Part shown: in pieces, positions 51,620-64,000 of the stretch | Layout of the letters: every line of letters begins with the position of its first letter | How positions within the stretch are numbered: the stretch's first letter is position 1 | NCBI GenBank assembly: GCA_946611195.1 | Contig: CAMODB010000001.1 | Coordinates: forward strand, 33,122 to 97,121 | Direction: 5' to 3' | DNA: 64,000 bases | Source: an uncultured Bacillota bacterium | Lineage (GTDB): Bacteria; Bacillota_I; Bacilli_A; ML615J-28; CAG-313 | The notes under the pieces: generated by a model | Database searches by the model: none | The model's input: the letters and a program-made list of their open reading frames with translations, nothing else | What the model was told of the DNA's origin: nothing | Program-made: the position numbers and the translations under genes

Positions 51620-54600
51620 TTAATTAAATTTAGCTTGATAAATTGCATCTAAATAATGATCACTGGTATCTTCCGTATAAGCCCAACACATTAAGCCTAC
51701 ACCATTCATACTCTTCGCATATTTATATTTTTCTTTAACCGCAAGAGTTGAATCATAAGTAATAAAGATTTTCGTTGTAGGATTATATAAATAACTTGCG
51801 ACAAAATTACCTTTACTATCGCGTTCATTATATTCAATATAACCACCACGTTTAACTATTTCTTCAATAGCATTACCATATAGTGTACCAGATGCAAAAC
51901 TACCATCGATACCACTAACTTGGGTTAAGGATGCACTTGCTCCTAAAGCTGGATAATTAGGGTTATTAGCCGTGCCAGTTACATTATATGCTTTACCATA
52001 ACCTGCACAACCAATTATTAATTTATTTCTATCAAAGCCAAGGGCAGTAATATTATTAATACCATAAACCCCACCAAAGCCATAACCACCATCATTAGCT
52101 GATGAATAAAGGGCGGAAACATGAGTAGCTTTCGACGAATTATTTAAATCATAACTCATAATATTAATATAATCTAGATATTTATTTAATGTAGGGAAAT
52201 CCCAACGACTAGTTGACAAACCCCAACTAGATGATGGTATTGCAGCAGTTAATAAATAACTACTTCCTCCTTCATCTTGCCTATTATCCATTTCTTCTCT
52301 TAAGCCTTTGACTAACGCATTAACTTGACTAGCTACTACTGGATAAGAACTAGATACATATTCCCAGTCTAAATCAACACCATCAAAATTATATTGTTCT
52401 ACCATATTCATAATATTATTAATAAAAGTCTTAAGTAAATTTTCATCTTTCGTAATATCATAGAAATATTTACTAGTATCACTACCAACCCCATTAATAA
52501 CCATTACTTGGCGAACATCATGTTCTTTAAGAAGTTTAGTTTCTTCTAAATAAGATGGACTGGAAAGAGTTAAACTACCATTAGCGGTTGGTACCGCAAA
52601 ACTATAATTCAATATTTCTAATACTTCTTTTGTCGTTTCGGAAAACATTGTACCATCTTTTAAATAACGTTGGTTATATTTTTTATAGGCGTATGCTGCG
52701 CCAACTGCAAAATAAGTAGAAATAGGTGTATCCGTAAATGGTGCATATTTAACTGGATTAATTATTATATTCTTTTGTTTTGTTACAGTGCTACCATTTT
52801 TATATTTAATTTTACAAGAGATTGTAACATTTTGTTTTTTATGTGTTTGATATATTTTTGAAGTTTTACCTTCATTACCATTTATTTGATATAGATTTGG
52901 ATTAGAACTATTCCATTCATAACTTGCATCATCATCTTCTAAAATAAGCATATCTAAGGTATCACTTTCAACAACATCGGATACGCAATTAAGAATTGTA
53001 TCAGCCGTGATATCGGAATGATTAACTAACCATTTTGCGTATAGGATAGTTTCATCACTTACTTCTTTTACTTCATTAAGATATAAGCTTTCTTTATACC
53101 AACCCATAAAATCATAACCAGCTTTAATTGGTATTGGTAAAGTATTAACTCCTTTATATTTGATTACTGCAAAATCAGCATTTTCATCATATCGTTTAAC
53201 ATTTACTTTAATATCAACATTAGCTTGATTACCATTTGGTAATTGTTTATTAAAATAAATATTATCGCCTAATTTAATACTATTTAAATTAGCCATTCCA
53301 TTACTATTTTGTTCAGAAACTAATAAATAATATTCACTAGTTCTTTTTTCTTCTGTTAAGGCTGTTCCATTATTTACAAAACCATCGACAGTATAAGTTT
53401 TCGTTACATTATTATAACTTAAACCAACTTTATAAGCATAAAGGAAAGAATCAGAGCTACCCATTAAAGAAGTCTTATAAAGGAAGATTTCATTTTCATA
53501 ATAAGTAAAGAAGCCTGTTGAATAATAATTAATAGTAAAACTTGTAACATCTTGTTCAATGACACTACTTGCTCCTTCTAAGGAACCACCATTTAAATAG
53601 AAACGAACATTATATTCATGATTATTTATTAATTCAACCATCTTGTTTTCTAAACTAACTAAGACATCAAGTTTAGTAACATAAGCTTTTACTTCATCTT
53701 TTGAATTATCATAATGACTACGAACAAGTATTAATTGTTCATTATCTTTAACATCTAATTTATCAAGAGTCGGTAAATTATTTATTTCATTATCAATGCC
53801 TTCCGCAAGCTCTATATATTCTTGAATCGTTTTAAGTTCTTTAATTCTATTTTCTAAAGAAATTAATTTATCAAGATTTGTAACATAACTTCTTACATTA
53901 ACATTTAACGCATTATAACGAAGGCGGGCTTGGGCTACTTTATTACGATCATCATAAACTAAATCTTCAACATTAGGTAAGGCGTCAATATAATCGATAA
54001 CGGGCTTTGCTTTAAGTTTATTTTCTTCCGTCTTTATTTCTTCTAGCATATCAAGTAAATCTTGATAATTTTCAATATATTTAGGATAGCCATAATTATC
54101 AATTTGTTGTTTTAAATCATTGATTTTATCTTTATTATCATAATAAGAAACTGAACTATCTTTTAATTCTTTAATTAAAGGAACAAATTCTAAACCTTTT
54201 TTAAATATTTCCACTTCATTTAATAATTCTTTTAATTTTGGATAATTAGTTATTTTTTCTTGCCTTGTGATATCTAATTTTTGATATTCATTATCTAGTG
54301 CTAAGATATTATCAATATCGCTTTCTTTTAATTCATTAACATCTGGTAATAAATCAATCTTTTTAATTAAATCATCAATCATTTTGATAATCTTATATTC
54401 GTATTCCGCATTAGTTAATTTATTATAATTACTAATCTTTTTTTGATTATCATTACTTAATTCATCATATCTATTTCTTAAATCGGTGATATTATCACCA
54501 TCAGCTAAAGTAATCGGATTTGGTAATTTATCAATATCATTTATTAGATTATTAATTATTGTTTTAATATTTTCTTCTTGAACTAAATCTAAATAAGCTT

Positions 54601-54856
54601 GGTACAATCTATTAAAACGATCGATATTAGTTATTTTAGTTTTATTATTATCATCTAAGTTATCATAATCACTCTTTATTTTAAGTAGCATCTCTTTATC
54701 AGCTATCGTTATTGGTTCATTTAAGGAATCAATATTCCTAACGATTTGTTCAATTACTTCTTTCTTTTCTTCCCCATCATTTTCTTTATCATTATTACAA
54801 CTAGCAATGGAAAAACTAAATACTAGAAGTAAAAGAATTATAAAGATTTTTTTCAT
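51620..54856 (-). CDS. 1078-aa modular lipoprotein: N-terminal helical repeats, Listeria-Bacteroides (Flg_new) repeat, C-terminal GH18 glycoside hydrolase domain
   Basis: Lipoprotein signal MKKIFIILLLLVFSFSIASC. At least five helical repeats of about 60-65 aa (consensus IxxIDxLPxxxxLxxxDxxxIxxLRxxYDxLxxxxQxKITNYxKL). The Flg_new motif is KAGYDFMGWYKE...LYAKW. The GH18 catalytic motif is FDGVDLDWEY (DxxDxDxE). Confidence 0.8.
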   Translation of the reverse strand: MKKIFIILLLLVFSFSIASCNNDKENDGEEKKEVIEQIVRNIDSLNEPITIADKEMLLKIKSDYDNLDDNNKTKITNIDRFNRLYQAYLDLVQEENIKTIINNLINDIDKLPNPITLADGDNITDLRNRYDELSNDNQKKISNYNKLTNAEYEYKIIKMIDDLIKKIDLLPDVNELKESDIDNILALDNEYQKLDITRQEKITNYPKLKELLNEVEIFKKGLEFVPLIKELKDSSVSYYDNKDKINDLKQQIDNYGYPKYIENYQDLLDMLEEIKTEENKLKAKPVIDYIDALPNVEDLVYDDRNKVAQARLRYNALNVNVRSYVTNLDKLISLENRIKELKTIQEYIELAEGIDNEINNLPTLDKLDVKDNEQLILVRSHYDNSKDEVKAYVTKLDVLVSLENKMVELINNHEYNVRFYLNGGSLEGASSVIEQDVTSFTINYYSTGFFTYYENEIFLYKTSLMGSSDSFLYAYKVGLSYNNVTKTYTVDGFVNNGTALTEEKRTSEYYLLVSEQNSNGMANLNSIKLGDNIYFNKQLPNGNQANVDIKVNVKRYDENADFAVIKYKGVNTLPIPIKAGYDFMGWYKESLYLNEVKEVSDETILYAKWLVNHSDITADTILNCVSDVVESDTLDMLILEDDDASYEWNSSNPNLYQINGNEGKTSKIYQTHKKQNVTISCKIKYKNGSTVTKQKNIIINPVKYAPFTDTPISTYFAVGAAYAYKKYNQRYLKDGTMFSETTKEVLEILNYSFAVPTANGSLTLSSPSYLEETKLLKEHDVRQVMVINGVGSDTSKYFYDITKDENLLKTFINNIMNMVEQYNFDGVDLDWEYVSSSYPVVASQVNALVKGLREEMDNRQDEGGSSYLLTAAIPSSSWGLSTSRWDFPTLNKYLDYINIMSYDLNNSSKATHVSALYSSANDGGYGFGGVYGINNITALGFDRNKLIIGCAGYGKAYNVTGTANNPNYPALGASASLTQVSGIDGSFASGTLYGNAIEEIVKRGGYIEYNERDSKGNFVASYLYNPTTKIFITYDSTLAVKEKYKYAKSMNGVGLMCWAYTEDTSDHYLDAIYQAKFN

Positions 54857-56139
54857 GAAACTTTCTCCTTTCTTTTTTTAATAATTAAATTAAGAATAAT
54901 TATTAATAAGACTATTAATATAACAATTAACGCAACTAAAAAGATATTTTGATTAGGTATAAATGATTGCGTTCCATCATCATTGGTGATTTGTTCGGCA
55001 TTAGATAAAACTAAGCTACCAATAAAAGGCCCGATTACCCCTGGAAGAAGTACTTGGAAAATTATTCTTAAACCTTGGAAAGAACCGGTTTTATCTTTTG
55101 GTGTATGGTCTCTAATTCTGGCGCCAAAATTAGACATTCCTGATAAATATCCCATCATCATTAAGAGGGAACCAATAAAGACGAAAACGGTATTTGTAAA
55201 AAGCGTTAAAATTAAAAAGCCTAATACTAAAATAGTTAAGGAAATAAGAATTGAAAAGGCAAAACCTTTTTTATCATATACTTTACCATAAAAGAAAGTA
55301 AAGATGGCAGCTAAGATTATTGCGGGGGCCATAATAAGTACATAATTATCGAGTTTTAAACTTACTTGATAATAGATGATTAGATATGGCATATAAATTT
55401 GAATAGCGATATTAAATAACATAAATAATAATAAATCTAAATATAATTGTTTATTTTCTTTAATAACGCTTAATTTAAAACCATAAAAGATATTTTTAAA
55501 ATAATTTTGGTTATTTGTTTTATCAATTACTGGATCTTTAATAATAAAGATACCAATAATACTAGTTATAATAACTAAAGCCCCAATAATGATATAGATT
55601 ATTTGCCATGATGATTCTTTATCAAGATTAAAGCCCATAAAACCACCAAAGACACAGAGAATTGCGAGTAGTGGCATCATGGAATTAATACCTTCTGCTT
55701 GACCACGATTACCAATTTCTGTTGAATCAGTAAGCCAAGCATTAAAAGAAGCATCATTAGCTGTGGAACCAAAGAAAGTCATTACACAATCCATTATAAT
55801 AACAAGGCTGATGCCTACGGCCATTACGGATGAAGATACAAAGATTTTTGAAATAAAACCTTTATTGATTAACGCAAAGGATAAAATACTGATTCCCCAA
55901 AAGAGATAACCAAATACCATAAAGACTTTTCTTTTACCAATTTTATCGGCTAAAGCACCCATAAAAATAGTTGTAAGGGCAGCCACAATGGCTGATAAAG
56001 CTACCATTAACGAAATATCAAAAGTTGATGCGTTAAAGATTTTATAGATAAAAACATTAAAATACATGTTTTCAACTACCCATGCTATCTGCCCAACCAG
56101 GCTAAATATAACTAAAGTTAACCAAAATTTCTTTTGCAT
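54853..56139 (-). CDS. MFS-type transporter (12 TM)
   Basis: 428 aa with 12 predicted TM segments. Its 3' end overlaps the GH18 gene start by 4 nt (ATGA), and it begins 6 nt after the helicase stop. Confidence 0.6.
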   Translation of the reverse strand: MQKKFWLTLVIFSLVGQIAWVVENMYFNVFIYKIFNASTFDISLMVALSAIVAALTTIFMGALADKIGKRKVFMVFGYLFWGISILSFALINKGFISKIFVSSSVMAVGISLVIIMDCVMTFFGSTANDASFNAWLTDSTEIGNRGQAEGINSMMPLLAILCVFGGFMGFNLDKESSWQIIYIIIGALVIITSIIGIFIIKDPVIDKTNNQNYFKNIFYGFKLSVIKENKQLYLDLLLFMLFNIAIQIYMPYLIIYYQVSLKLDNYVLIMAPAIILAAIFTFFYGKVYDKKGFAFSILISLTILVLGFLILTLFTNTVFVFIGSLLMMMGYLSGMSNFGARIRDHTPKDKTGSFQGLRIIFQVLLPGVIGPFIGSLVLSNAEQITNDDGTQSFIPNQNIFLVALIVILIVLLIIILNLIIKKRKEKVS

Positions 56140-56145
56140 AATTTC

Positions 56146-59100
56146 CTACTTAATACTTAGATAATCATCATTATCATTGATTTGATTTTTTTCTTTCATG
56201 TATTCTACAACTTCATTAAGACGGGTTTCAATATTTGATCCAACCCTTTGATAACCGAGTTGTTTAGCAATCGCAAGATATAAATTTTCTTTAGAAATTG
56301 AAACATTATTCTTAATTAAGATGTACATGCCACTAGCGATTTCCGCATTACTGATTAAAGAAATATCACGTTCTTCTTTTTCTTTTCGAGGAATACGCAT
56401 TTTAATTTCTTTATCTTTATCTGTAATATAATAATCTTCAACTTTAAAAATACGATCGGGATTTTTTCTTAAATAGATTCGTAGTAACTTCTTATATTCT
56501 TCATCAGCTACTCTTCTTCTAAATAATTCTAAACATTTTTTCGCAATTAAATCGAAAGTGATTGGTCCTTCTTTATCAATTAAATTGAATAATTCATTCA
56601 TGACAAGTCCATTTGGATCAACCTTATAAGGGACATATTTATCAAAAACAATTTCTTGTAAATCTTCAAAATCGGTAAATAAATTATGAACTTCTTTCTT
56701 ATCAACATTGATAAATTCATCTTTATCGATTTCTTGATTTGTATCTTTAAGACCTTTACCACTCGCTATTTTCGCAATAAATTGTAATAATTTCTTCTTT
56801 TCAATCTCTTTATTTTTAAACCAATCGATACTCCAAATTCTATAATATGACCAACCATAATTCTTTAAGACTTGTTCTCTTAAACGATTTCTTTCACTAG
56901 TAGTTTTACTATTATAATAATTAGGTCCATCTAATTCGATAGCGAGAAGATATTCATCTTTATCTTTAACTGCTAAATCAATCTTAAAATTAGATCTACC
57001 AATATTAGTATCAACGGTATATCCTTTTTCAACAAGAACATTCTTAATGTCAGCAATTAAATAATCATATTCTTTTTCAACACTTGTTTCTTTATTGTCA
57101 ATTACATAATCATTTTCTAAATAAGCTAAATAATTGCGGAGTGATTTTGCGCCATGCATAACTTCACTAGAAATCATCGAACTCTTCATCGATGTAACAA
57201 TAATATTTTGACATTTAGCTCTTGTTACCGCAACATTTAATCTTCTTTCGCCACCTTCTTTATTAAGAGGTCCGAAATTATTTAAGAAACGACCATTAGT
57301 ATCTCTACCATAGGCAAGAGAGAAAATAATTACATCGCGTTCATCACCTTGTACAGTTTCTAAGTTTTTAATAAAGAAATTAGCTTTATCAAGTAATTCA
57401 TTCTTCTTATTAAGATTTAATTTATTAATCTTTTCTTCAATTAAATCAGCTTGACTAATCGAAAAAGCAACAACTCCAAGTGTCCGATCTGGATATTTTT
57501 TAATTGTTTCAAAGACTAATTCGACAACTTTATCAGCTTCAATTTCATTGATTCTTCTCTTACGATCAAAGATACCATTTTCCATATAAATTAGTTTATT
57601 ACCAAAACCTTCTTTATGAGGATTATTTTCTGGGAAAGTGATTAATCGATTATTATAGAATTCTTTATTGGAAAATTCAATTAAGCTTTCAGCTCGACTA
57701 CGATAATGCCAATTTAAATAGCATGAATTAAAACTGGCATTTGCAATATCAAGAATTGATTCAAATCCACCTGTTAAATCGGTACCATCTTCATCATATT
57801 CATCATCTTCATAAGTAGATATAAAGAAATCTGTTGGTGGCATTTGTTTACTATCTCCAACAATGATAACTTGTTTTGATCGGTAAATAGAACCAATCGC
57901 ATCTTCAGGGAAAACTTGCGAAGCTTCATCAAAGATAACTAAATCAAAATTAGAATTATCACTTGTAAGATAAGTACTAACACTTAATGGTGACATCAAG
58001 AAACATGGTTTAATTTCTTGAATTACTTTGAAATCATCTCTTAATAAAAGACGTAAAGGTTTAATCTTCGTCTTCTTTGACATTTCCTTAATGATGTCAC
58101 TCAATTGACTACCACGAACTGCGGTTTGCGTTTGCGGTAGATTGTTTGATAGATAAGATGTTACTAACGCAATAGACGCATTAATTTTTAAAGTATCATC
58201 TTTCTTAAATTCTTTTACTTCTTCATCTAAATTAATACGACTGACATCTTTTAAAACTTTATTATTATTTAAAACATGAGTTGTCCATTGTAAATAGAAT
58301 AAATAAGCAAAATTAAGGGTAAAATCAACTTTATCAATATTATAATTAATACCTCTATTTATATAATCTACTAAATCATAAACAATTAATTCATCATATA
58401 ATTTATTAAAATTAACATAGTTTTCTACTAAATCAAAATCCGCAATACATTTTTCTAGGCGATCAAATAGACTTCCTAATTCCATATGTGCAATATCAAA
58501 TTGTTTTTCATCAAAGACTTTAATTAAATAATCTTTAGAATCTCTTTCTTTTTTCGTATCATTATAGAAATTAATAAATTCGATACAGCGATTACGAATT
58601 TCCGTTAAATTATCATTATTTTTTGACGCAAGATATTGATAATTAGTTGGGAATGCTTCATATAAATTACTAAGTTCTGTTTCTAATTTCTTATAATTGA
58701 AATTAGCTTTTAATTCTATTTCTATTTCTTCGGCAATTTTTTGTTTTAATTTATCTAATTCAATTTGTAAATTTTGTTTCTTTTTACCATCATTAAGTAG
58801 ATTTACTAAAGAAGCATAATCAATTTTTTGTTTAGGATTCTTTTGATAAGACATCAATTGTTTCTTTCTTAAACGATAATTCTTTTTTAAGAAACGAAGT
58901 TTAGTAGCATAATGTTCACTAAATTCTTTTGTTAACGCATTGAAATCATTCTCATAAATCTCCAGACGATAAACATCACCAATTCTCTTATAAGCCTCAT
59001 CATAAGCTTCTTTCGCATTATTATAATTTCTAATTAAACTAATGATATCTTTTAAATGTTCTTTATTAAACAGATTCTTAGAGATAACACTTAAATTAAC

Positions 59101-60717
59101 AAAGGCTTTAATAAAATTAAGATAGCGTTCAATTTTTGTAAAATCTAAGATCTTTAATTTTAAATCTTCATTTAATAATTCAATATAGATATTTAATTTA
59201 TCAATATAAGTATAAAGCGTCTTAATATTATCTAATAAATTAGTTTTTTCTTCATATGATAAAGATTTTAGTTTTAAACCATACCAGGTATTAAGACGAT
59301 AATCATAACCAATACTATCTTGATAAGAAACAAATTTTTCGATTGCTTTAAAAGCTCTAGTGAAATAATTTTGATCTTTACTTGTAATATTACGAATCAC
59401 ATAATTAATTCTATTATGATCTTCATATTGTTTGATTTTATTGATTAATTCATAGACTGTATAATTAATTGGTTGAATTTTCTTATTTAAATTATCGGCA
59501 TACGCATCAAGATAATCTTTATGAATTTTAATTTCTTCAAGTACTTTATAGGCTTTTTGATTAACACTTTCTTTAGGAGCTTCTAAAACTTCTTTTAATT
59601 CATTTAAAACAGCTTTCTTATTTGATTTATTAGAATGTAGTTCTAAACAATATTTAGCTAAGCCTACTTTACTTAAATTATTATATACGACTTTTAAAGC
59701 CGCTAATTTTTCGGATACGAAAAGAATCTTTTTACCTAATAATAAGTTTTCCGCAATAATATTGGTAATTGTTTGCGATTTACCAGTTCCCGGAGGACCT
59801 TGAATAACTAAATTTTCACCACTAGTACTTTTTAAGATAGCTTCCATTTGACTGCTATCGGCATCAACTACATTATGGATTTTAAGTTCTGTTTCGTTAT
59901 TGATAACGATATTATTAACATCATTTTCATCAACAACTCGACCTAAGAGTTTTTTAACTAAAGGACTATTTTGAACTTCTTCTTCATGTTTCATTAAATC
60001 TTCATACATATTAATTTTAAGGAAGGAGAAAGTTCCTAGACAAGCTGAATAATCAACACTAAATTTAGATTTACTTAAAGCTAATTCTACTCTTTTAAAA
60101 TAAGCCATAACGCTTTCTTCTAAAATTGTAAAATCAGTAGATGATGTGTCTTTAAAGATTGGTAAATCAAAATTATATTCATTCTTTAATTTATAAATTA
60201 GGGTTGGATTAGTTTCTGCATCATCATCAAGTTCTTCAAGGCTATATTTATTTTTAATTAAATCTATTTTTACAGGAATTAATAAAAGAGGAGATTTTAA
60301 TTCTTCATTCTTCTTTTTATCTTTCCAATTTAAAAAGCCTAACGCAACATATAAAACATTAATACCTTGATCATCATAGATTTTTTTTGTTACTTTACGG
60401 ATATTATTTAATAAGTTATTTACCGTATAACGTTCATTATAAATCAAAATTTGATTTTTCTTTAAATCATCTTGGTAATAATCAAAAACTTCTTTTTTTG
60501 TTAAAACATCTTTTTTTAGTTCATTACGTAAATCATTTAAAGATTTATCAATATCCATTATTTGTAAAACTTGTTTATCACTTAATTTATGATAAACATC
60601 TTCACAACTAGGTAAAATGATTTCTCCCGAACGCATAGTATAAGAAAAATTAATTAATTTATTTCTCTTACCGGTATCTAATAATTTAGTGCATAATGCT
60701 TTATAAGACTTGTCCAT
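56146..60717 (-). CDS. DUF4011 / SF1B (Upf1-like, AAA_11+AAA_12) helicase fused to C-terminal PD-(D/E)xK (DUF559/MTES_1575-like) nuclease and DUF3320-like tail
   Basis: Walker A LVIQGPPGTGKSQTI; DEASQ; GDSKQMPPTDFF; YRSRAESLIEFSNKEFY; VQGDERDVIIFS; RRLNVAVTRAK. The C-terminus has FKIDLAVKDKDEYLLAIELDGPNYY...WSYYRIWSIDWF (REase fold). The N-terminal 260 aa or so match the DUF4011 pattern. 1523 aa. Confidence 0.8.
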   Translation of the reverse strand: MDKSYKALCTKLLDTGKRNKLINFSYTMRSGEIILPSCEDVYHKLSDKQVLQIMDIDKSLNDLRNELKKDVLTKKEVFDYYQDDLKKNQILIYNERYTVNNLLNNIRKVTKKIYDDQGINVLYVALGFLNWKDKKKNEELKSPLLLIPVKIDLIKNKYSLEELDDDAETNPTLIYKLKNEYNFDLPIFKDTSSTDFTILEESVMAYFKRVELALSKSKFSVDYSACLGTFSFLKINMYEDLMKHEEEVQNSPLVKKLLGRVVDENDVNNIVINNETELKIHNVVDADSSQMEAILKSTSGENLVIQGPPGTGKSQTITNIIAENLLLGKKILFVSEKLAALKVVYNNLSKVGLAKYCLELHSNKSNKKAVLNELKEVLEAPKESVNQKAYKVLEEIKIHKDYLDAYADNLNKKIQPINYTVYELINKIKQYEDHNRINYVIRNITSKDQNYFTRAFKAIEKFVSYQDSIGYDYRLNTWYGLKLKSLSYEEKTNLLDNIKTLYTYIDKLNIYIELLNEDLKLKILDFTKIERYLNFIKAFVNLSVISKNLFNKEHLKDIISLIRNYNNAKEAYDEAYKRIGDVYRLEIYENDFNALTKEFSEHYATKLRFLKKNYRLRKKQLMSYQKNPKQKIDYASLVNLLNDGKKKQNLQIELDKLKQKIAEEIEIELKANFNYKKLETELSNLYEAFPTNYQYLASKNNDNLTEIRNRCIEFINFYNDTKKERDSKDYLIKVFDEKQFDIAHMELGSLFDRLEKCIADFDLVENYVNFNKLYDELIVYDLVDYINRGINYNIDKVDFTLNFAYLFYLQWTTHVLNNNKVLKDVSRINLDEEVKEFKKDDTLKINASIALVTSYLSNNLPQTQTAVRGSQLSDIIKEMSKKTKIKPLRLLLRDDFKVIQEIKPCFLMSPLSVSTYLTSDNSNFDLVIFDEASQVFPEDAIGSIYRSKQVIIVGDSKQMPPTDFFISTYEDDEYDEDGTDLTGGFESILDIANASFNSCYLNWHYRSRAESLIEFSNKEFYNNRLITFPENNPHKEGFGNKLIYMENGIFDRKRRINEIEADKVVELVFETIKKYPDRTLGVVAFSISQADLIEEKINKLNLNKKNELLDKANFFIKNLETVQGDERDVIIFSLAYGRDTNGRFLNNFGPLNKEGGERRLNVAVTRAKCQNIIVTSMKSSMISSEVMHGAKSLRNYLAYLENDYVIDNKETSVEKEYDYLIADIKNVLVEKGYTVDTNIGRSNFKIDLAVKDKDEYLLAIELDGPNYYNSKTTSERNRLREQVLKNYGWSYYRIWSIDWFKNKEIEKKKLLQFIAKIASGKGLKDTNQEIDKDEFINVDKKEVHNLFTDFEDLQEIVFDKYVPYKVDPNGLVMNELFNLIDKEGPITFDLIAKKCLELFRRRVADEEYKKLLRIYLRKNPDRIFKVEDYYITDKDKEIKMRIPRKEKEERDISLISNAEIASGMYILIKNNVSISKENLYLAIAKQLGYQRVGSNIETRLNEVVEYMKEKNQINDNDDYLSIK

Positions 60718-60740
60718 AATTTATAAATCCTCTTTTTCTT

Positions 60741-60749
60741 ATTATATCA
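60741..60749 (-). promoter_or_regulatory. helicase gene promoter, extended -10 (TGaTATAAT)
   Basis: The minus strand reads ATGATATAATAAGAAAAAGAGGATTTATAA-ATG. The -10 TATAAT is the RC of 60741-60746, with TG at -14/-15. The RBS AAGAGGA lies 8 nt before ATG 60717. Confidence 0.6.
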
Positions 60750-60805
60750 TTTTTAAGGAGTTACTAATAAAAAAAAGCATTAAAGGAAAGCAAATAAAAA
60801 AAGTA

Positions 60806-60830
60806 ATATATTTTTTATATATTACTCTTA
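60806..60830 (-). terminator. rho-independent terminator separating merR from the helicase gene
   Basis: On the minus strand AGTAATATAT-aaaaa-ATATATTACT (10-bp stem) is followed by TTTTTTTATTT. Confidence 0.6.
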
Positions 60831-60975
60831 ATTTGTTAAATAGATTACTTGCCTGTAAAAAATATATTTGTAAGTAAGGGAGTTTTAAATAGACAAGTAA
60901 TCCACTAGACATTAGGTTTCCCTATTGTCTACTGAATTATTAAGAAAAGAAATGATTCTTCGTTTTTTTTAATTT

Positions 60976-61287
60976 TTATAATAAATCAATCTTTTTAATT
61001 GTTTGATTTATTATGTCTACTTTCTTAATTAAATCAGATTTAATTTTCGAAAGTATTTGTTCTTTTTCATCTTTATTAGTTTCTTTTTTAAAGATGATTT
61101 TTAAATCTTCAATGGTAACATCTGATGAACGAAGGAAAATAATTAATTCTAATCTTTCAATATCTTCTTCATTGAAGGTTCTTATACCATTGATACGGTT
61201 AATAGGGCCAATAAGCCCTTCTTTTTCGTAATAACGAAGGGTTGATTCATTAACCCCGTATTTGTTTGCGACTCCCTTAATTTTCAC
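60976..61287 (-). CDS. MerR-family transcriptional regulator (103 aa, minimal MerR)
   Basis: N-terminal HTH KIKGVANKYGVNESTLRYYEKEGLIGP followed by a short coiled-coil. Confidence 0.8.
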   Translation of the reverse strand: MKIKGVANKYGVNESTLRYYEKEGLIGPINRINGIRTFNEEDIERLELIIFLRSSDVTIEDLKIIFKKETNKDEKEQILSKIKSDLIKKVDIINQTIKKIDLL

Positions 61288-62076: not shown

Positions 62077-62778
62077 ATGTTTATCATAAGACTAGCTGAT
62101 TTAAATATTAAGATTAATTCATCTAACCCTTACTTAATTCATCTATGTAAAGATTATATCATAGATTCCACAAATTTTCAAATAGAGATATCTATAACGC
62201 AAGCTGATTTAGATTTTGAGAAGCAATACACAACCGAAATAGATAATTATAACTATTTAGAAAGTGTTGCAACCTTAAGAAAAATCACTGATGAAATAGC
62301 TAATTTTGATGGTTTCTTATTCCATTCCTGTATTCTTAAAGTTGATGATTATGCCTATGGTTTTTCAGCACCATCTGGGACTGGTAAAACTACCCATTCA
62401 AGATTATGGAAACAATATCTAAAAAATAAATGTGTCTATATCAATGGTGATAAACCTTTGATTAGAATCATTAATAATATACCTATTGCGTATGGAACGC
62501 CTTGGAATGGTAAAGAAGGTTATGGAACTAATACGAAAGCCCCTTTAAAAGCTTTAGCTTTTATTGTTCGTGACACGACTAATTATCTAATTGAATTACC
62601 AAAATCGGCTATCGCAAAACCAATTCTTAAACAAATTGTTTTACCAACTGATTTAAATAAATTAGATAAAGTAATTAAAAATGTTAATAAAATGTTAGAT
62701 TATACATCTTTTTATGAACTCCATTGTAATATGGATATTGAAGCCGCCAAAATAGCTTATGAGAAAATGCAAGAATAA
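62077..62778 (+). CDS. P-loop protein resembling the HPr kinase/phosphorylase C-terminal (kinase) domain
   Basis: GFSAPSGTGKTTHS P-loop in a context like HprK-C (GxSGxGKS/T followed by a Trp/Gly-rich block GTPWNGKEGYG); 233 aa; no HprK N-domain. Confidence 0.4.
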   Translation: MFIIRLADLNIKINSSNPYLIHLCKDYIIDSTNFQIEISITQADLDFEKQYTTEIDNYNYLESVATLRKITDEIANFDGFLFHSCILKVDDYAYGFSAPSGTGKTTHSRLWKQYLKNKCVYINGDKPLIRIINNIPIAYGTPWNGKEGYGTNTKAPLKALAFIVRDTTNYLIELPKSAIAKPILKQIVLPTDLNKLDKVIKNVNKMLDYTSFYELHCNMDIEAAKIAYEKMQE

Positions 62779-62987: not shown

Positions 62988-64000
62988 ATGATAAAAAGAC
63001 ATATTGAAAAAGTAATTACTGAAGCAATAAAGCATTTTCCTGTAATTCTTGTTACAGGACCAAGACAAATTGGAAAATCAACATTATTATATAATTCATT
63101 CTTATCTAAAGGATTTTCATATGTCTCTCTTGATGATCAATTAGAATTGTTAACTGCTAAGTCTGATCCAAGAAGTTTCTTAGAAATTCATCAGAGTCCA
63201 ATTATTATTGATGAGGCTCAAAAAGCGCCAGAATTATTACTTGAAATTGAAAGAATTGTAAACAAATCACGATTAGAAAAAGGAAATAAAGAAAGTAATG
63301 GCCTTTATATTTTATCAGGATCACAAAGAAAGGTATTATTGGATGAAGCAAAGGAATCTTTGTCAGGTAGAGTTGGAATTATTGATATGAATAATTTGTC
63401 TATAAACGAAATTATGGAATCTGATGAAGGACCATTTACTTTGGATTTAAGTAATTTAAATAAAAGAGCAAATAGATTTTATATCAATGAAAGTGAAGCG
63501 TTTCAATATATAGTTCGAGGCTTTTTCCCAGTATTATATGATGATACTAAAATGAACACACAATTATTTTATTCATCATATATAACAACATATATTGAAA
63601 AGGACATTAAAGAATTGATAAATATTAGTGATGAAATAAAATTCATAAAGTTTTTGCGAATACTTGCATCTAATATTGGTCAAGAATTGATATATGAAAA
63701 CTATTCAAATCAAGTTGGCGTTTCCGCAAATACAATTAAATCATGGATTGCAACTTTAGAAAAAACGGCAGTAATTTATTTAGTTGAACCTTATAATGAT
63801 GAATCAATAGTTAAAAGAGTAGTTAAAAGACCTAAAATGTATTTTTTTGATACTGGACTTGCTGCATATCTATGTGGAATTGATAGTGCTGAAACATTAA
63901 ACAATAGTTTTTTAAAAGGACGTTTTTTTGAAGCTTTTATTTTTAATGAAATTAAAAAAGCATATATGAATGCAGGAATAGATCAAAAATTATATTATTA
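62988..64000 (+). CDS. AAA+ ATPase of the AAA_14/DUF4143 family (3'-truncated by window end)
   Basis: RBS AAAAAGGAG lies 8 nt before ATG 62988. ILVTGPRQIGKSTLL Walker A near the N-terminus is typical of this family. The reading frame is open to the end of the window. Confidence 0.75.
   Translation, partial: MIKRHIEKVITEAIKHFPVILVTGPRQIGKSTLLYNSFLSKGFSYVSLDDQLELLTAKSDPRSFLEIHQSPIIIDEAQKAPELLLEIERIVNKSRLEKGNKESNGLYILSGSQRKVLLDEAKESLSGRVGIIDMNNLSINEIMESDEGPFTLDLSNLNKRANRFYINESEAFQYIVRGFFPVLYDDTKMNTQLFYSSYITTYIEKDIKELINISDEIKFIKFLRILASNIGQELIYENYSNQVGVSANTIKSWIATLEKTAVIYLVEPYNDESIVKRVVKRPKMYFFDTGLAAYLCGIDSAETLNNSFLKGRFFEAFIFNEIKKAYMNAGIDQKLYY

Follow-up and report, generated by a model that had tools for sequence, protein, structure and literature searches.

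The locus and its gene order

The features of the locus are listed in Table 1; the window is the whole stretch of DNA that was analysed, with a length of 64,000 nt. At the centre of the locus is an intact open reading frame, beginning with ATG, ending with TAG and encoding 1523 amino acids. The upper boundary of 60975 in the initial annotation corresponds to this frame together with the 258-nt spacer upstream. The protein is an intact helicase–nuclease, and its family has already been catalogued among the candidate anti-phage proteins. Its gene is chromosomal, stably inherited and the first of an operon; it is neither solitary nor recently acquired.

Table 1. Genes, protein segments and signals of the helicase–nuclease locus, in order of transcription
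Feature	Position in window	Strand	Remarks
MerR-family (NmlR-like) regulator	60976..61287	minus	directly upstream; in 3/4 orthologous loci
Imperfect dyad, MerR–helicase spacer	60898..60939		19-nt arms, 84% complementary, 4-nt gap
Conserved box ACTCCCTTACTTAC	60870..60883	minus	common to the three loci having MerR
Intrinsic-terminator-like hairpin and U-run	60792..60829 (hairpin 60799-60829)	minus	13-bp A/T-rich stem
Extended -10 element TGATATAAT	60741..60749	minus	TGnTATAAT in 4/4 orthologs
Ribosome-binding site AAAGAGGA	60728..60735	minus	equivalent AGAGG in orthologs
Helicase–nuclease CDS, 1523 aa	56146..60717	minus	DUF4011, split SF1B helicase, Vsr-type nuclease, winged-helix tail; PADLOC PDC-S37 type
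DUF4011 module and linker, residues 1-285	59863..60717	minus
Helicase domain 1A, N-terminal part, residues 286-385	59563..59862	minus	invariant in 60 homologs; PDB matches
Walker A GPPGTGKSQTITN, residues 307-319; motif Ia FVSEK, 333-337	within 59563..59862	minus
Insert of ~520 aa in helicase core, residues 386-905	58003..59562	minus	conserved positions scattered
Helicase motifs II–VI region, residues 906-1180	57178..58002	minus
Motif II DEASQ, 930-934; III GDSKQMPP, 954-961; IV WHYRS, 1003-1007	within 57178..58002	minus
Motif V QGDERD, 1123-1128; VI GGERRLNVAVTRA, 1155-1167	within 57178..58002	minus
Vsr/DUF559-type endonuclease (MTES_1575), residues 1223-1314	56776..57051	minus	D1247, E1261-x-D1263-G1264, Y1267
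Disordered linker, then winged-helix domains, residues 1315-1523	56149..56775	minus	predicted structure
MFS transporter	54853..56139	minus	probably co-transcribed
GH18 lipoprotein	51620..54856	minus	probable third gene of the operon

Domain organization of the protein

All the motifs quoted in the initial annotation are present in the translation, where they read GPPGTGKS, DEASQ, GDSKQMPP, WHYRSRAESLI, GGERRLNVAVTRAK, FKIDLAV, LAIELDGPNYY and WSYYRIWSIDWF. The joining of a DUF4011 module, an SF1B helicase and a Vsr-type nuclease in one chain is borne out by a Pfam scan, with significant matches to DUF4011 (residues 11-177; 2e-30), AAA_11/AAA_19 (about 288-384 and 919-962), AAA_12 (996-1177; 4e-18) and the MTES_1575 restriction endonuclease (1223-1314; 1e-26), the last above the gathering score and with a Vsr-like fold.

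Starting at the N-terminus, the DUF4011 module with its linker gives a confident alpha/beta model, for which there is no structural neighbour among solved PDB structures. The chain then enters the N-terminal part of helicase domain 1A, where the PDB matches are Sen1, IGHMBP2 and Upf1. The core is interrupted here by the large insert, for which Pfam and PDB searches gave no match, and resumes with the region containing motifs II to VI. All seven SF1 motifs (I, Ia, II, III, IV, V and VI) are invariant across 60 homologs and all are found in the window protein, in agreement with the earlier description of an intact helicase core.

The endonuclease domain keeps the acidic residues D1247, E1261 and D1263. 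The near-invariant residues R1274, D1275 and D1277 are replaced by S, E and N respectively; the asparagine at 1277 is unique to the window protein among 60 sequences, and is found also in two of the orthologs. The tail that follows had been called DUF3320-like. Scanned alone it matches DUF3320 (PF11784) with 16.9 bits (E 0.0065), short of the gathering cutoff of 25 bits, but it does model as winged helices; according to a review of HEPN domains DUF3320 overlaps a wHTH (PMC3710099). The protein as a whole is a long-branch, divergent member of PDC-S37; depending on the domain, it retains 76-95% of the positions that are conserved in the family.

Transcription of the gene

Both signals proposed earlier for the upstream side are upheld. 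The hairpin with its U-run folds at -10 kcal/mol (z -5.1) and stops transcription from MerR or the spacer before it reaches the helicase promoter. A terminator recurs ahead of all four orthologs, with equivalent hairpins located in L003, L087 and L093. The gene has its own promoter, whose extended -10 element, read at 60749-60741, is conserved ahead of 4/4 orthologs, and the ribosome-binding site likewise recurs upstream of all four. The dyad in the spacer is a candidate MerR operator, and L087 has a perfect 8-bp dyad at the homologous place. The MerR gene is absent at L093; being found in only three of the four orthologous loci, it is not an obligatory partner.

At the 3′ end the description of a solitary gene forming its own transcription unit does not hold. 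The start codon of the MFS gene lies 6 nt past the helicase stop, the GH18 start overlaps the MFS stop by 4 nt, and the helicase–MFS junction contains no terminator-like site and no significant structure. Since the helicase gene continues straight into MFS and GH18 it is not an isolated unit, and the three genes are probably co-transcribed. The helicase–MFS junction is tight in all four orthologs; in L093 the order helicase–MFS–GH18 is kept, with the helicase and MFS reading frames overlapping by 8 nt.

Conservation within the lineage

The lineage sample comprises the four relatives found, one genome of which has a frameshift. The helicase gene is located in the same slot in all four, with an identity of 53-58% that falls inside the range of the neighbouring genes (mostly 47-79%), among which the MerR regulator and a 219-aa lipoprotein diverge further than the others. 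Its GC content is 25.9%, and in codon usage it lies at a distance of 0.022, a minimum for the window that it shares with the GH18 gene. No tRNA genes, meaningful or flanking repeats or mobile-element marks were found at the locus. The shared slot, neighbour-like divergence and host-like composition therefore indicate a gene that is old and vertically inherited in the lineage. The marks of a defence island or mobile cargo (variable presence, atypical composition, and flanking repeats, tRNA genes or integrases) are not seen.

The gene had been placed at the junction with an accessory-looking island. Most of that upstream island is conserved in the relatives, and the description applies only to an AAA_14/DUF4143 gene (PDC-S01), the sole variable neighbour. 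Syntenic conservation, which the initial annotation had named as speaking against its own proposal, was found in all four relatives; this weakens the picture of a recently acquired island gene and keeps a housekeeping role alive. Elsewhere the helicase family has a patchy distribution that extends across domains and includes conjugative plasmids, and the helicase is missing where the same MFS gene occurs in organisms further removed. The DUF4011 module occurs in at least 4,796 clusters at 50% identity.

Proposed function and alternatives

The reading we prefer, with a probability of about 0.6, is that the protein is a lineage-fixed, single-protein anti-phage or anti-plasmid helicase–nuclease of the Hhe/ProA/PDC-S37 superfamily. 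The winged helices and/or the DUF4011 module would engage nucleic acid, the SF1B motor would translocate 5′-to-3′ at the expense of ATP in the manner of Upf1-like helicases, and the Vsr-like domain would nick or cut DNA upon meeting an abnormal substrate. By homology with Hhe the substrate would consist of intermediates from the replication or DNA metabolism of phages or plasmids, which would make stand-alone protection against phages or plasmids the likeliest role. In this lineage the gene is a long-resident chromosomal one; on the preferred reading it is expressed constitutively, and the adjacent MerR regulator may also influence its expression. The earlier suspicion of defence fits the best database matches, which are PDC-S37 over the full length in PADLOC, together with Hhe and the NCBIfam ProA. 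Counting against it are the replacement of D1277 by N, the probable co-transcription with sugar-uptake genes, the core-like behaviour of the gene (synteny, divergence, composition, no tRNA genes or repeats), the core status of a DUF4011 gene in all Pseudomonas aeruginosa isolates, the candidate-only status of PDC-S37, and scores under the NCBIfam equivalog cutoffs of both Hhe and ProA.

A housekeeping role in DNA maintenance is a serious rival, though a tentative one. The protein would then be a core DNA-repair or replication-conflict enzyme, possibly stress-induced via the NmlR-like MerR regulator, and by a DNA2-like logic would unwind and then cut flaps, forks or R-loops. Much of the lineage evidence is of the kind expected for such an enzyme: synteny in 4/4 relatives with divergence like that of the flanking genes, host-like codon usage and GC without mobile-element marks, no partner genes, an operon shared with metabolic genes, purifying selection on all motifs, and a conserved dyad downstream of merR. 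In addition, the core markers common to every P. aeruginosa isolate include a DUF4011 gene and a MerR gene, and 'Prometheus', whose tie to the helicase–nuclease family is putative, is reported to be vertically inherited in Lokiarchaea. However, the sample is four genomes, one of them frameshifted, and L093 is without MerR; fixation and vertical inheritance are possible for defence genes too; the wider distribution of the family (patchy, plasmid-borne, cross-domain, and lacking where more distant organisms have that MFS gene) argues the other way; and proteins of closely similar architecture have been either validated or named as anti-phage. It is unlikely, in our estimate, that this low-GC, gut/rumen-type Firmicute lineage has turned an Hhe-type defence helicase–nuclease into a domesticated core gene, co-transcribed with metabolic genes. 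Such a protein would serve host genome maintenance or stress response and not phage defence, under MerR/NmlR-type control via the conserved dyad, with DUF4011 as a previously unseen nucleic-acid- or damage-sensing fold.

It seems quite improbable that the Upf1/Sen1/Mov10-like core acts on RNA, a mode of action proposed for helicases of the Mokosh MkoA type, and that the nuclease is a secondary effector. The nearest solved cores (Sen1, IGHMBP2 and Upf1) are RNA or RNA/DNA helicases, and MkoA and MkoC are secondary PADLOC matches, but DNA2, a DNA enzyme, is also matched, the effector has a DNA-cleaving Vsr/DUF559/homing-endonuclease fold, and the winged-helix domains after it are typical of DNA binders; substrate choice itself cannot be revealed by sequence. 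It is hardly credible that the helicase, the MFS transporter and the GH18 lipoprotein act together as one functional unit. The close spacing of the genes, its conservation in the orthologs and the three-gene order of L093 suggest such a unit, but no helicase gene lies close to the MFS homolog in 80 loci (54-64% identity) or in two others (67%), and the reading is disfavoured. Inspection of the neighbours at both 67% loci showed the MFS gene paired with a GH2 glycosidase. PDC-S37 homologs elsewhere adjoin unrelated genes, and no biochemical logic joins a DNA helicase–nuclease to chitin-type sugar uptake.

Taken alone, the gene is an expected result of annotation and not a surprise. The DUF4011 family is very large and includes Hhe as a validated member; with 1523 aa and intact motifs, the window protein offers a minimal version that lends itself to biochemical and structural study. 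That its gene resides stably in the chromosome is relevant to the question of whether widespread 'defence candidates' like PDC-S37 are truly immune proteins, or housekeeping helicase–nucleases that are sometimes recruited to defence.

Comparison with known systems

By its sequence the protein is of a known kind, a divergent, compact and apparently lineage-fixed addition to the PDC-S37 family, related to Hhe and ProA. PADLOC matches it end to end with the PDC-S37 HMM (PDLC05009; 1170.5 bits, E=0), residues 9-1520 aligning with positions 14-1544 of the 1550 in the profile, and length and domain order are the same. Homologs at 36-42% identity score 1365-1437 bits. In keeping with a single-gene system there is no conserved partner, MerR being absent in L093 and MFS and GH18 unrelated to the family elsewhere; the HelD-like neighbour found beside some PDC-S37 homologs is absent here. 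PDC-S37 is one of 145 candidates and was predicted by 'guilt-by-embedding' (Payne et al., bioRxiv 10.1101/2024.01.29.577857); belonging to it is therefore no firm guide to function.

The Upf1-like SF1B helicases (Upf1, Sen1, IGHMBP2 and DNA2) share the seven SF1 motifs and provide the best PDB sequence matches, and DNA2 likewise combines an SF1B motor with a nuclease. However, these matches are confined to short core segments (profile E 1e-14 at best), and the Upf1-like helicases have no counterpart to the 520-aa insert, the DUF4011 module or the Vsr-type nuclease, which contrasts with a RecB-type one. The nuclease is related to the Vsr/DUF559/I-Bth0305I fold; from a reading of the motifs, the position of the DUF559 His appears to be an invariant Tyr in the family of the window protein. 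Here the domain is appended to a 1523-aa motor protein and does not stand alone as a repair or homing enzyme.

The ProA profile (NCBIfam NF058533, 'anti-phage protein ProA') aligns with nearly the whole protein (residues 9-1491), but its 1068.4 bits do not reach the equivalog cutoff (1500). Residue 9 is paired with position 364 of the 1903 in the profile, where the alignment starts, and the ~360-aa N-terminal extension of ProA (1-363) is therefore absent here. ProA may be linked to the DefenseFinder system 'Prometheus', which is a guess on our part.

Hhe has the same domain order of DUF4011, SF1B 1A, insert, SF1B core and MTES_1575 nuclease. The two proteins are 29-35% identical in two colinear BLASTP blocks, and the ExDG nuclease motif aligns. 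Hhe is ~390 aa longer (1911 aa), with an insertion in its DUF4011 module (30-308) and a longer helicase insert; its tail after the nuclease is ~130 aa as against ~210 aa here, and winged helices were modelled for the window protein alone. The NCBIfam Hhe model (NF042953) gives 733.6 bits over residues 556-1342 only, where the equivalog cutoff is 2000; the match to the PADLOC Hhe model (PDLC02194) is limited to residues 707-1304. About 35% of the window protein is unaligned to Klebsiella Hhe, and colinearity over the full length (about 1800-1900 aa in Hhe) is not seen. The Klebsiella Hhe examined is on a conjugative plasmid, whereas the window gene is chromosomal and lineage-fixed. Hhe reportedly protects against lambda, T3, T7 and PhiV-1, and loses this defence upon point mutation of the nuclease (bioRxiv 10.1101/2022.06.16.496414). 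Because it shares this domain order, the architecture is not functionally uncharacterized, as had been supposed, but is that of a protein with reported activity against phages.

Domain architecture and conserved motifs

The helicase gene is an ATG-to-TAG ORF on the reverse strand. The initial annotation extended the feature to 60975, which corresponds to the ORF together with the 258-nt spacer that reaches the merR stop codon. Given its length in DNA of 26–28% GC and the Pfam E-values of its domains, the ORF cannot, on sequence grounds, be a chance feature. All the peptide motifs previously quoted are found in the translation. The sole claimed domain that fails is a DUF3320 tail, for which there is no Pfam match in the whole protein at E ≤ 0.01; when the tail is scanned alone it scores 16.9 bits (E 0.0065), under the Pfam cutoff of 25. 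An insert of ~520 residues, with no match in Pfam or the PDB, divides the helicase core in two. Sequence and profile searches of the PDB give matches only to the Upf1-like SF1B cores of Sen1, IGHMBP2, Upf1/Nam7, DNA2 and ZNFX1, with no solved structure from the helicase-nuclease family, and the DUF4011 model finds no match in a BFVD fold search.

Table. Features of the helicase gene, its surroundings and its relatives (window positions, unless residues or another locus are given)
Feature	Location	Detail
Helicase ORF	56146..60717 (-)	1523 aa
DUF4011	residues 11-177	Pfam, E 2e-30
AAA_19/AAA_11, N-terminal part	residues ~288-384	Pfam
Insert	residues 386-905
AAA_11, C-terminal part	residues 919-962	Pfam
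AAA_12	residues 996-1177	Pfam, E 4e-18
MTES_1575 REase	residues 1223-1314	Pfam, E 1e-26
Walker A	G307-T318	invariant, 60 homologs
Motif Ia	F333-K337	invariant, 60 homologs
DEASQ	930-934	invariant, 60 homologs
GDSKQMPP	954-961	invariant, 60 homologs
WHYRS	1003-1007	invariant, 60 homologs
QGDERD	1123-1128	invariant, 60 homologs
GGERRLNVAxTRA	1155-1167	invariant, 60 homologs
Nuclease residues	E1261, D1263, G1264, Y1267, R1276, R1278, R1280, R1293, W1295	invariant, 60 homologs
Dyad arms	60898-60916 / 60921-60939	19-nt arms, 4-nt gap
Conserved box	60870-60883	ACTCCCTTACTTAC
Terminator-like hairpin	60792-60829	13 bp + U-run; -10 kcal/mol, z -5.1
Extended -10 element	60749-60741	TGATATAAT
RBS	60735-60728
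GH18 lipoprotein	51620-54856 (-)	1078 aa; direct repeats at 54347/54524
Upstream cluster	L001:4492-6354 and window 62077-62778 (+)
AAA_14/DUF4143 ATPase	62988-64000 (+), cut by window end; L001:6492-7730	PDC-S01, 325 bits
Helicase frameshift	L087:1371-1930	1 nt, DUF4011 region
~1027-aa SF1 protein	L006:12762-15848; L088:11753-14836; L089:11768-14851
2151-aa DUF4011 protein locus	L096, NZ_CP069422.1, 6944-20363	Aristaeella lactis rumen plasmid
hhe locus	L097, 1-11868	Klebsiella quasipneumoniae pKP18-31-3

The motifs were aligned across 60 homologs of 35–54% identity. Beyond the invariant positions, nuclease D1247 is kept in 58 of the 60, and position 1268, a His in the consensus, varies within the family. 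The helix that follows the active-site strand reads T-T-R-D-R-D-R in the family and T-T-S-E-R-N-R in the window protein, which differs there at three near-invariant nuclease positions. N1277 is unique to it among the 60 sequences, yet is present in two orthologs. Decay of the nuclease in this lineage was considered and rejected: the domain keeps 87% of its family-conserved positions, comparable to the other domains (76–95%), and we therefore read the substitutions as the probable product of a long branch.

Transcriptional context

The gene has its own promoter. The upstream terminator and extended -10 promoter of the initial annotation are real; the hairpin, TGnTATAAT and AGAGG all recur upstream of the helicase in the four orthologous loci (hairpins of -11.1, -12.7 and -11.1 kcal/mol in the orthologs), and make up a good phylogenetic footprint. 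MerR is not an obligatory partner, since merR is present at the relatives' loci L003 and L087 and missing at a third, L093. The MerR–helicase spacer also contains an imperfect dyad (84% complementary) and a conserved box. These are common to the three merR-bearing loci and missing from L093, itself without merR. A MerR operator is one possible reading of the region, a short regulated transcript ending at the terminator another. An Rfam scan of the 50–64 kb section of the window found nothing significant, the best hit, Spy491738, scoring 29.5 bits where the gathering score is 91.

The start codon of the MFS gene lies 6 nt past the helicase stop, and the GH18 gene overlaps MFS by 4 nt. The helicase–MFS gap is 5–8 nt in the orthologs, and at L093 the called ORFs overlap by 8 nt. 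A terminator scan finds no terminator-like site at this junction, and its structure is not significant (z -0.56). The gene is thus most likely the first cistron of a helicase–MFS–GH18 transcript, reading through into MFS, rather than an insulated unit; the proposal that it forms its own transcription unit breaks down at the 3′ end. The GH18 lipoprotein has a long N-terminal region of repeated helical segments, with a Listeria-Bacteroides repeat preceding the chitinase-like domain, and diverges faster than its neighbours (47% identity at L093).

Inheritance in the lineage

The window comes from a 185-kb metagenome scaffold. Only two clusters among 5.8 billion proteins exceed 50% identity to the helicase; the third ortholog was located via its MFS neighbour. 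Contigs of representative genomes searched with the protein gave only one distant Arthrobacter locus (27% identity), so these genomes are without a close relative. The orthologs at L003, L087 and L093 are 54, 58 and 55% identical to the window protein. That of L087 has residues 1-50 in one frame and 87-1523 in another; on this single contig the frameshift is either a pseudogene or an assembly error.

Where the contig reaches, all four loci, with that of the window counted in, share the order (NTP_transf_5, PqqD, ~145 aa, reverse ~233 aa, lipoprotein, [MerR]), helicase, MFS, (GH18, PdxK). Identity to the window is 53–58% for the helicase against 47–79% for most flanking proteins, with the MerR regulator (36–42%) and the 219-aa lipoprotein (29–35%) diverging faster. 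The gene is thus a vertically inherited ortholog whose divergence has kept pace with that of the genes around it. Its composition is host-like (GC 25.9%, GC3 15.1%, codon-usage distance 0.022, joint lowest in the window), and a search for mobile-element borders nearby found no tRNA genes and no meaningful direct or bracketing repeats. With this composition and a slot shared by all four loci, it is not evidently part of the accessory-looking island at whose edge it had been placed.

The supposed 'kinase-like island' is a small cluster that encodes an NTP_transf_5 nucleotidyltransferase, a PqqD-like protein, a ~145-aa protein and, in divergent orientation, a 233-aa P-loop protein that in relatives is faintly similar to ScmC. 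The cluster is kept in L003 and L093 and is not accessory in the lineage; its make-up recalls a peptide-modification (RiPP-type) cassette. One neighbour alone is variable, the AAA_14/DUF4143 ATPase gene, a full-length match to PADLOC PDC-S01 that is absent from the corresponding place in L003 and L093. This makes it a variable gene and a candidate for defence, located 2.3 kb from the conserved PDC-S37 gene.

The family at large

The family-level picture is the reverse of this fixed inheritance. Relatives occur on 493 plasmid records (Klebsiella, Ralstonia, rhizobia, haloarchaea and others), 214 of them conjugative, and the neighbourhoods of ~40%-identity homologs are unrelated; relatives are rare in phage records and IMG/VR contigs. 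The DUF4011 module forms 4,796 clusters at 50% identity (E ≤ 0.001) and is almost always N-terminal, in proteins of ~1500–1600, 1820–1865 or >2100 aa.

In three independent loci of other clades a conserved ~1027-aa SF1 protein begins ~10 nt past a PDC-S37-type gene. It bears a distant resemblance to HelD/HelR (E 1e-21 to 1e-14, far under cutoffs); the three copies have 62–71% mutual identity, none matches PADLOC, and a WYL gene is near in two of the three loci. Together the two genes may form a two-gene variant that has gone unrecognised; the window has no such partner. Downstream of the DUF4011 gene on the Aristaeella lactis plasmid, and on the same strand, come genes for a Ser/Thr kinase, a hypothetical protein, an FHA protein, a 4Fe-4S protein, an AAA ATPase and a Ser/Thr protein phosphatase, a putative much larger system built around the same helicase-nuclease.

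Defence or housekeeping

We read the protein, with a probability of about 0.6, as a helicase-nuclease, of the Hhe/ProA/PDC-S37 superfamily, that works on its own to protect against phages or plasmids and whose gene has become fixed in the chromosome in this lineage. The motor would move 5′-to-3′ on DNA, the winged helices and/or the DUF4011 module would engage nucleic acid, and the Vsr-like domain would cleave on meeting foreign replication intermediates. The feature is real, and most of its initial description holds, but the gene is not solitary, nor is it evidently island-borne.

The main rival, a serious one though less probable, is a housekeeping DNA-maintenance enzyme. The initial annotation had held that syntenic conservation across the lineage would speak against its reading, and such conservation is found at four of four loci; the host-like composition points the same way. 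There is also a precedent, in that every Pseudomonas aeruginosa isolate has a core DUF4011 gene adjoining a core MerR gene (bioRxiv 10.1101/2022.11.11.516204). The defensive reading, which we prefer, draws on the family assignment described below. A purely RNA-directed role for the protein is unlikely, as is a functional link to the MFS and GH18 genes with which it is tightly spaced. The helicase is near none of 80 MFS homologs at 54–64% identity on metagenome contigs, nor at two loci of 67%, where the MFS gene is paired with one for a GH2 glycosidase; the coupling is of position only and is lineage-specific. None of the 80 loci is syntenic, and they provide no 'empty-site' genome. Interest remains in whether PDC-S37-type genes serve defence or housekeeping, in the structural orphan that is the DUF4011 module, and in the possible two-gene variant of other clades with a HelD-like partner.

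Comparison with known systems

The protein matches the PADLOC phage defence candidate PDC-S37 from end to end (1170 bits, residues 9-1520 against profile positions 14-1544 of 1550); its homologs score 1365–1437 bits. PDC-S37 belongs to a set of 145 candidates whose prediction was based on genes found embedded within known defence systems (bioRxiv 10.1101/2024.01.29.577857). Against NCBIfam 'anti-phage protein ProA' it scores 1068 bits, under the cutoff of 1500, and because the alignment begins at profile position 364 it is without the N-terminal extension of ProA. Against NCBIfam Hhe it scores 734 bits versus a cutoff of 2000. The Klebsiella hhe product (1911 aa, PGAP-annotated, on an IncFII conjugative plasmid) has the same domain order, and can be aligned over two colinear blocks, with 29% identity at residues 82-516 and 35% at 747-1304, which bring the ExDG nuclease motifs into register. 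Hhe is reported to act against lambda, T3, T7 and PhiV-1, and activity is lost with the nuclease point mutation E1731A (bioRxiv 10.1101/2022.06.16.496414); several T7 DNA-metabolism genes behave as its triggers (PMC11482910).

The architecture is thus already catalogued and a paralogous branch validated, the gene's own branch being a candidate only; the gene adds a new and divergent member to a known kind and does not introduce an architecture of its own. In Klebsiella quasipneumoniae, hhe lies on the conjugative IncFII plasmid between two DUF262 genes, which directly precede it, and IS66 elements. Such a context is typical of mobile defence, whereas the window gene occupies a fixed chromosomal position.
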